Positions 20,948 through 22,999 of a DNA stretch of 64,000 bases are shown here, one piece after another. The translations under genes and the position numbers were made by a program. Each line of letters starts with the position of its first letter. Position 1 is the stretch's first letter. Below the pieces are notes generated by a model. The model did no database searches and was not told the DNA's origin. It worked only from the letters and a program-made list of their open reading frames with translations. Source of the stretch: Escherichia coli (lineage in GTDB: Bacteria > Pseudomonadota > Gammaproteobacteria > Enterobacterales > Enterobacteriaceae); assembly GCF_003018235.1 (NCBI RefSeq), contig NZ_CP027437.1. One strand, given 5' to 3'.

Positions 20948-21131
20948 CTTAATCCAGTGCAGTGTCTTAGCTGAATACAAGTCGCCAGGAGTATATGAAT
21001 AAATCCCGGCAGCGGATAGCGTCAAGCCTGGCTTGCAGAAAAACTCGGAATAAACCTTATTTGTTGCAGCCCTGTGGCACAATGGTCAACATAATACCCT
21101 AACCCGACAACGCGAAAAAAAGAACTTTGCC

Positions 21132-21896
21132 ATGAAATTGAATATCCGCGCGCAAACTGCACAAAACCAGCACAATAATTCTCCCATCGTTCTTGTCCAT
21201 GGTCTGTTTGGCAGTCTCGACAACCTTGGCGTACTGGCTCGCGATCTGGTAAACGATCACAATATCATCCAGGTTGATATGCGTAACCACGGTCTTTCAC
21301 CGAGAGATCCAGTGATGAATTACCCGGCGATGGCGCAGGATCTTGTTGATACCCTGGATGCACTGCAGATCGACAAAGCAACATTTATCGGTCACTCCAT
21401 GGGCGGTAAAGCGGTAATGGCACTTACTGCACTGACCCCCGATCGGATTGACAAGCTGGTGGCAATTGATATTGCTCCGGTCAATTATCACGTTCGCCGG
21501 CATGATGAGATTTTCGCGGCCATCAACGCAGTCAGTGAATCGGACGCACAAACTCGCCAGCAAGCAGCAGCAATAATGCGCCAGCATCTTAATGAAGAAG
21601 GGGTGATTCAGTTTCTGCTGAAATCTTTTGTTGATGGGGAGTGGCGCTTTAACGTGCCGGTATTGTGGGATCAGTATCCGCATATTGTGGGTTGGGAGAA
21701 AATCCCGGCATGGGATCACCCTGCCCTGTTTATCCCTGGCGGCAATTCTCCGTATGTTAGCGAGCAGTACCGCGATGATTTACTGGCACAATTTCCACAG
21801 GCACGGGCGCATGTGATTGCAGGCGCGGGTCACTGGGTCCATGCTGAAAAACCGGATGCGGTATTACGCGCTATCCGTCGCTATCTCAATGATTAA
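21132..21896 (+). CDS. ybfF: YbfF, alpha/beta-hydrolase esterase (254 aa)
   Basis: HGLFGS ... GHSMGG nucleophile elbow; divergent from seqA as in K-12. Confidence 0.9.
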   Translation: MKLNIRAQTAQNQHNNSPIVLVHGLFGSLDNLGVLARDLVNDHNIIQVDMRNHGLSPRDPVMNYPAMAQDLVDTLDALQIDKATFIGHSMGGKAVMALTALTPDRIDKLVAIDIAPVNYHVRRHDEIFAAINAVSESDAQTRQQAAAIMRQHLNEEGVIQFLLKSFVDGEWRFNVPVLWDQYPHIVGWEKIPAWDHPALFIPGGNSPYVSEQYRDDLLAQFPQARAHVIAGAGHWVHAEKPDAVLRAIRRYLND

Positions 21897-21901
21897 CGCA
21901 A

Positions 21902-21917
21902 CTGATTAAAAACCCAG
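21902..21917 (+). promoter_or_regulatory. LexA (SOS) box candidate upstream of ybfE
   Basis: CTG-N10-CAG (CTGATTAAAAACCCAG) about 120 bp upstream of ybfE; ybfE is recalled as LexA-regulated in K-12. Confidence 0.5.
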
Positions 21918-22035
21918 CGCCCGCGTCGCTTTCCGCGCGCGGGCGTTGGCGTGACTCATCGCGCTGATGTATTATGGCGCGCTATCCATCCGGGCAGAGG
22001 CCTGGCTGATTGTTTCCCCCGAAGTCACCAAAATC

Positions 22036-22329
22036 ATGGCCAAAGAACAAACGGACCGTACGACATTAGATCTGTTCGCGCACGAGCGTCGACCGGGACG
22101 ACCGAAAACTAATCCGCTTTCGCGCGATGAACAGCTGCGTATTAATAAACGCAACCAGCTAAAACGCGACAAAGTACGTGGCCTTAAGCGTGTCGAACTG
22201 AAGCTGAACGCGGAAGCTGTCGAGGCGCTGAACGAGCTGGCGGAATCGCGCAATATGAGCCGTAGCGAACTGATCGAAGAGATGTTAATGCAGCAACTGG
22301 CGGCGCTGCGTAGTCAGGGCATCGTTTAA
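22036..22329 (+). CDS. ybfE: YbfE, small SOS-regulated protein (97 aa)
   Basis: ATG at 22036 gives [33 protein letters not shown]...; upstream ORF-track extension rejected. Confidence 0.8.
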
Positions 22330-22468
22330 ATTTCCACTTTCATGTAGCACAGTGTGCAGTCCTGCTCGTTTGCTGATTCCGCAAGACTGCCTGTTCTGCT
22401 ATGATTGCCTTTATCCGTGGGCAATTTTCCACCCCCATTTCAATAAGTTTCAAGAGGTTATTTCACTC

Positions 22469-22999
22469 ATGGCTATCACTGGCATCTTTTTCGGCAGCGA
22501 CACCGGTAATACCGAAAATATCGCAAAAATGATTCAAAAACAGCTTGGTAAAGACGTTGCCGATGTCCATGACATTGCAAAAAGCAGCAAAGAAGATCTG
22601 GAAGCATATGACATTCTGCTGCTGGGCATCCCAACCTGGTATTACGGCGAAGCGCAGTGTGACTGGGATGACTTCTTCCCGACTCTCGAAGAGATTGATT
22701 TCAATGGCAAACTGGTTGCGCTGTTTGGCTGTGGTGACCAGGAAGATTACGCTGAATACTTCTGTGACGCATTGGGCACCATCCGCGACATCATTGAACC
22801 GCGCGGTGCAACCATTGTTGGTCACTGGCCAACTGCGGGCTACCATTTCGAAGCGTCAAAAGGTCTGGCAGATGACGACCACTTTGTCGGTCTGGCTATC
22901 GACGAAGACCGTCAGCCGGAACTGACCGCTGAACGTGTAGAAAAATGGGTTAAACAGATTTCTGAAGAGTTGCATCTCGACGAAATTCTCAATGCCTGA
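22469..22999 (+). CDS. fldA: Flavodoxin 1 (176 aa)
   Basis: ATG at 22469 gives [23 protein letters not shown]..., the long-chain flavodoxin FMN-binding motif. Confidence 0.95.

Follow-up and report, generated by a model that had tools for sequence, protein, structure and literature searches.

Analysis of the junction between ybfF and ybfE led to a LexA-like site that LexA probably binds weakly if at all and that probably adds little to the control of ybfE, a reading to which we assign a probability of roughly 60%. The site lies within the window, the 64-kb stretch of Escherichia coli DNA that was analysed as a whole, and it is the already known ybfE SOS box, catalogued in the SOS literature since 2000-2001. 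Judged from the comparison of orthologous loci, the bases behind its likeness to a LexA site seem for the most part to be explained by the ybfF stop codon, an A-tract and the foot of a hairpin. Two other explanations were weighed against this one. The site may be a genuine LexA operator, specific to Escherichia and Citrobacter, that gives ybfE a modest SOS input and acts non-classically from about -72; this is possible, but we consider it the less probable account. Alternatively, and improbably in our view, LexA may be irrelevant at this locus, where the pattern TG-N3-TAAAA and the hairpin would form a termination or RNA-stability module of ybfF, an antisense terminator or the site of another protein.

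The ybfE box and its genomic context

The core of the site, CTGATTAAAAACCCAG, harbors both the CTG and the CAG triplet of the LexA-operator type in inverted orientation and exactly 10 bp apart (Table 1). The earlier note had placed it between ybfF and ybfE, 6 bp from the ybfF stop and approximately 120 bp from ybfE, and these statements hold, as the CTG begins 6 bp past the TAA and the ATG at 22036 lies 119 bp beyond the last base of the motif. The surrounding 20-mer, AACTGATTAAAAACCCAGCG, is identical in K-12 MG1655, where it falls at about 712,015-712,034 of NC_000913.3 and where 3 of the 186 aligned bases around the box differ from the window. No paper turned up in a literature search with the 20-mer itself. 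Local gene order is pgm(-), seqA(-), ybfF(+), ybfE(+), fldA(+) and uof-fur(+), and the gene identities are backed by the RefSeq annotation of an E. coli genome that is 100% identical at the locus, in which the product name of ybfE is "LexA regulated protein". The stretch from 21100 to 22350 was matched in 5,424 of the 5,426 complete E. coli genomes and is 100% identical to that of strain CFIAFB20140388. Identity of at least 99% was reached in only 6 of the 5,424 genomes, with the others at 95-99%, pointing to an uncommon E. coli lineage.

Table 1. Features of the ybfF-ybfE junction, in coordinates of the 64-kb window.
Feature	Position	Strand	Remarks
LexA-like 20-mer	21900-21919		Published ybfE SOS box; identical in K-12 MG1655
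Core CTG-N10-CAG	21902-21917		Two inverted triplets with 10 bp between them
ybfF CDS, alpha/beta-hydrolase esterase	21132-21896	+	Stop TAA at 21894-21896
ybfE CDS, 97 aa, ribbon-helix-helix protein	22036-22329	+	Pfam RHH_1, E = 1.7e-10
In-frame TGA within the left half-site	21903-21905	+	ybfF stop codon in 53/76 enterobacterial species
A-tract TAAAAA, spacer of the box	21907-21912		TAAAA (21907-21911) invariant or nearly so in 44 genera/species
GC-rich hairpin	21914-21949	+	Arms 21914-21925 and 21938-21949; fold and covariation
ybfE sigma-70 promoter	21946-21975	+	-35 TTGGCG 21946-21951, 18-bp spacer, -10 TATTAT 21970-21975
GC-rich discriminator GGCGCGCT	21976-21983	+	Nearly invariant across genera

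Strength and conservation of the LexA-like match

The match was scored with a heterology-index (HI) matrix built from 25 E. coli LexA boxes that reportedly go back to Lewis 1994 and Fernandez de Henestrosa 2000. The indices obtained with this matrix follow the published ones closely (Spearman 0.90, n = 24; PMC11228462 Table 1). The 20-mer has an HI of 10.12 and is the best of the 127,962 positions in the window, followed by sites at 10.8, 11.9 and 12.0. Its published HI is about 11, and it has been termed a 'predicted (weak) LexA box' (PMC11228462). Both values fall below 15, the threshold used in searches for LexA sites (PMC11002266), and therefore within the range of LexA-binding sites. A true operator is favored by this result, as the CTG-N10-CAG is intact, an HI of 10-11 is within the accepted range and the boxes of polB and yoaA are weaker still, with a published HI of 13 (PMC11228462). 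Among the 24 boxes, the ybfE box ranks as the weakest on our scale and 23rd, that is, second weakest, on the published one. The HI scoring proposed in the earlier note gives a value at the weak extreme of the accepted boxes, which is half of what that note would take as a refutation; the weakness that was suggested is borne out (HI 10.1 on our scale and 11 as published), while the role as an operator is contested.

Compared with chance, the site is not stronger than expected in the sequence searched. Sites with an equal or better HI are expected 0.21 times per 64 kb (300 first-order Markov simulations), and at least one occurred in 17% of the simulated 64-kb sequences, so the ybfE site does not exceed the best match that chance would give in a window of this size. 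Scaled up, the expectation is about 15 sites per genome and about two in its non-coding DNA, which counts against an operator. The bare pattern CTG-N10-CAG is present in 35 copies in the window versus 13 expected from dinucleotide shuffles, an excess that we attribute to the frequent use of CTG (Leu) and CAG (Gln) codons, and it serves as a warning that the pattern alone is no evidence for LexA sites. The ybfE box shares with the E. coli LexA operators (consensus TACTGTATATATATACAGTA) the CTG-N10-CAG core, an AT-rich spacer and an HI of 10-11, but it stands at the weak extreme of their accepted range. Both triplets are needed in LexA boxes, and the left half of this one reads CTGA, which corresponds to the disfavoured T at the residue-15-equivalent position (PMC5999292).

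Conservation was studied at 80 ybfE loci across the Enterobacteriaceae (one genome scanned per species). With the invariant GTTGGC as the anchor, 76 of these could be aligned almost without gaps upstream of ybfE. No variation is seen at T9 and G10, which form the TG of the left CTG, at A14-A17 in the A-tract of the spacer, at C24 or in CGTTGGC, while T13 of the spacer is at least 90% conserved. The triplets vary. The left one is CTG in 48 sequences, TTG in 11, ATG in eight and GTG in seven, and the right one is CAG in 24, CGG in 13, CAT in nine, GAG in seven, GCC in six and CAA in six. CTG and CAG are retained together by only 16 of the 76 species (four Escherichia, eleven Citrobacter and one Yokenella), and the LexA triplets are lost from the orthologous position in Salmonella (CAT), Klebsiella, Enterobacter, Kluyvera and Kosakonia. 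Four further contigs whose YbfE protein is the same as that of the Salmonella arizonae representative all read AACTGATTAAAAACTCATCG; this exact protein is very widespread, being found in 1,008 index blocks. In contrast to what is seen for LexA operators, retention of the box as a LexA site is limited to Escherichia, Citrobacter and Yokenella. That the TG, the TAAAA and the stem-closing C-G/G-C pairs of the hairpin are invariant over 44 genera while the LexA triplets drift is an argument for an element to which LexA is irrelevant.

Part of the constraint can be read from ybfF itself. In 53 of the 76 sequences the ybfF stop codon is the TGA within CTGA, and in most genera the last codon and the stop are AAC-TGA, giving the CTG; in Escherichia the reading frame closes a few codons before it, in E. 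coli with TAA. The heptamer TGATTAA occurs twice at this place, 14 bp apart (21889-21895 and 21903-21909), the first copy being the stop region of ybfF in Escherichia and the second carrying the TGA that is the stop in most genera. However, T9 and G10 are invariant even in Klebsiella-type sequences, where the ybfF stop codon is elsewhere, so part of the conservation must have another cause than the stop codon, a point in favor of the operator. A second such point is found within Escherichia and Citrobacter. The 20-mer is fully conserved in E. coli, another Escherichia species and E. albertii, and is 19/20 identical in most Citrobacter, although the loop of the neighboring hairpin has diverged; the retention of the 20-mer beside a diverged loop would fit selection on the site.

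Promoter and hairpin of ybfE

A classical LexA operator lies across the -35, the -10 or the start site. Upstream of ybfE, the promoter scan gave a single sigma-70-like site, TTGGCG-18-TATTAT, which matches the consensus at 9/12 positions and predicts a transcription start at about 21981-21984. Relative to this predicted start, the box is centred at about -72, and 27 bp separate its proximal edge from the -35 downstream of it, so that, unlike the E. coli operators placed over their promoters, the box neither overlaps nor abuts the -35, the -10 or the predicted start. With the box clear of both hexamers, classical occlusion of RNA polymerase would be impossible. The HI scan of the window gave no second LexA-like site near the ybfE promoter, and the promoter scan gave no promoter-like site over the box at its threshold; like the distance of the box from the conserved ybfE promoter, the latter result stands against an operator. 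If LexA did act from this position, it could block an upstream activating contact (the alpha-CTD or an activator on the A-tract), it could be a roadblock to read-through out of ybfF, or it could repress a minor promoter at the end of ybfF with its start inside the box.

The identification of the ybfE promoter itself agrees with published data. Its hexamers are within a spacing of 16-18 bp, both elements, GTTGGC(G) and TATGAT/TATTAT, are maintained from genus to genus, and a genomic SELEX catalogue of constitutive promoters bound by the RpoD holoenzyme gives the identical hexamer pair (PMC3946193). RNA-seq operon mapping showed that the promoter heads a ybfE-fldA-uof-fur operon, works in log phase and falls silent in stationary phase (PMC4161252). 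The discriminator may explain this log-phase-only activity as well as the dependence on SspA, through a link to the stringent response and SspA that we infer. The whole arrangement, GTTGGCG-N18-TATTAT/TATGAT followed by GGCGCGCT, is almost invariant in about 70 species.

Other candidates around the box were rejected. A promoter overlapping it, with AATGAT (21888-21893) as the -10, has a best -35 with only 2/6 positions and is unreported by the scan. UP elements usually lie at -40 to -60, and the A-tract, at about -77 to -71, is outside this usual region. An IHF site at the A-tract and box was judged by eye to fit the consensus poorly. Two minor features were also recorded. In the spacer between ybfE and fldA, a promoter-like TTGAAA-18-GAAAAT (22424-22453, - strand), a consensus match only, is aimed antisense into ybfE. 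In the 5' leader of ybfE (21987-22028), CCGGGC/GCCUGG (21990-22005) forms a short hairpin, and the conserved TTGTTTCCCCCGAAGTCAC comes after it. The position of this leader hairpin is kept with differing sequences (74% paired versus 22-54% in slid controls); RNAalifold calls no structure in the leader and its fold is unexceptional (z = +0.98).

The hairpin that follows the box is considerably stronger. Its fold has an energy of -34.1 kcal/mol (z = -4.4) on the + strand and -33.6 kcal/mol (z = -3.1) on the - strand. Pairs were counted for named structures, as RNAalifold returned only a trivial 5-pair structure for the ungapped alignment of 44 sequences. In these sequences, in the E. coli register, 77.5% of the cells are paired versus 27-56% when the partner is slid, and four pairs show compensatory change, values attained by none of 500 shuffles. 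On the + strand G.U pairs outnumber A.C pairs by 146 to 41, an excess that favors an RNA structure on this strand, and both differences between K-12 and the window that fall in the hairpin arms create G.U pairs. The 5' foot of the hairpin contains the right CAG of the box and the 3' foot contains the TTGG of the ybfE -35, so that this CAG and the invariant TTG of the hexamer are base-paired. Right triplets that pair fully with UUG, CAG, CGG and CAA included, are found in 43 of the 76 sequences.

These features lead to the mechanism that we favor. The CTG would come from the end of ybfF (AAC-TGA, last codon and stop in most genera), the spacer from the separately constrained, invariant A-tract, and the CAG from the foot of the conserved hairpin, where it would be paired with the UUG of the -35 region; in Escherichia and Citrobacter, a LexA-like palindrome would arise where these three constrained elements meet. 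As judged from its HI, weak binding of LexA may occur when the repressor is abundant. The box would then contribute little or nothing to the control of ybfE, which would be driven by the conserved, growth-phase-sensitive sigma-70 promoter with its GC-rich discriminator, and the variable response of ybfE to DNA-damaging treatments would be mostly LexA-independent.

The same features also bear on the improbable case in which LexA plays no part at all. A stable, covarying hairpin would fit a module for termination or RNA stability, and the - strand shows the canonical shape of a stem plus U-tract, with the stem followed by GUUUUUAAU. YbfE is moreover a DNA-binding protein of the ribbon-helix-helix type, and putative autoregulation by YbfE is one possibility for the site of another protein. 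On the other hand, the + strand lacks a U-tract after the hairpin, no gene on the - strand ends at the hairpin (21914-21949), and the terminator scan called it on neither strand. Rfam, searched over 21700-22500 at a permissive E-value, had no matching family. The junction resembles the intrinsic, bidirectional-type terminators between tandem genes in its GC-rich stem of 11-12 bp right after a stop codon, in its upstream A-tract and in the U-tract on the opposite strand, and differs from them in having no sense-strand U-tract and a 3' arm that overlaps the -35 of the next gene. An element of this kind is also compatible with weak LexA binding in E. coli. A combined scheme, which we rate as an equally long shot, would treat TG-N3-TAAAA, the covarying hairpin and the -35 as one module, coupling ybfF termination to ybfE initiation (as could happen since the 3' arm contains part of the -35) or serving as the operator of YbfE, with the LexA box as a recent addition that provides a weak SOS input from about -72 by anti-activation and not by occlusion.

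Expression of ybfE and its place in the LexA regulon

The published record on ybfE is divided. Reviews and later papers, with reference to Fernandez de Henestrosa 2000 and Courcelle 2001, count ybfE as a LexA-regulated gene, and the reviews trace this to the Northern and array work that they cite, which favors a functional operator. A ybfE promoter-GFP reporter was UV-inducible, again in its favor, and was set aside by the authors as an outlier with strong late down-regulation and without a sigma-70 prediction (PMC5999292). In contrast, a 2024 RNA-seq study with the non-cleavable lexA3 allele reported that AZT induces ybfE 4.0-fold, with a lexA dependence of 0.74-fold and an SspA dependence of 2.9-fold, and concluded that the induction is not lexA-dependent (PMC11228462). 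Ciprofloxacin left ybfE mRNA of K-12 unchanged (PMC11002266), and in EHEC treated with it ybfE has no entry at 2 h and later values of 1.0 and -1.3 (PMC11125564). The persistence of induction in lexA3 and the lack of response to ciprofloxacin both count against the operator. The earlier note had named ybfE as LexA-regulated, which agrees with the catalogued box, the RefSeq name and the reviews and conflicts with the lexA3 RNA-seq with AZT and the two ciprofloxacin studies.

The data from Salmonella, where CAT replaces CAG, can be read both ways. The mutagen MX left ybfE uninduced (0.9-fold) while classical SOS genes were induced (PMC2225428), as would be expected if the intact box of E. coli mattered, whereas nalidixic acid raised ybfE expression although an SOS box was not found (PMC8072944). 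In the same genus, LexA-independent behaviour accompanies boxes that have an HI near 10 and are remote from the ATG (PMC8072944), and the ybfE box resembles these distant, high-HI boxes. A further likeness is with ssb, which has a recognisable SOS box and yet inconsistent regulation (PMC11228462 and PMC9505508). The two cases differ in that the ssb box is shared with uvrA, for which it is clearly functional, while no second gene is served by the ybfE box.

The comparative analysis offers a sequence-level reason for the inconsistency of ybfE as an "SOS gene", because its box is badly placed, barely above chance and made of bases that are mostly conserved for other reasons. The marginal box that we favor supports the conclusion of the 2024 RNA-seq study that ybfE induction is not lexA-dependent, and it suggests caution with ybfE in lists of the LexA regulon and in motif training sets. 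Apart from its regulation, a transposon-sequencing screen found that insertions in ybfE, as well as its deletion, confer a gain of function under mitomycin C or bleomycin (PMC10165496).
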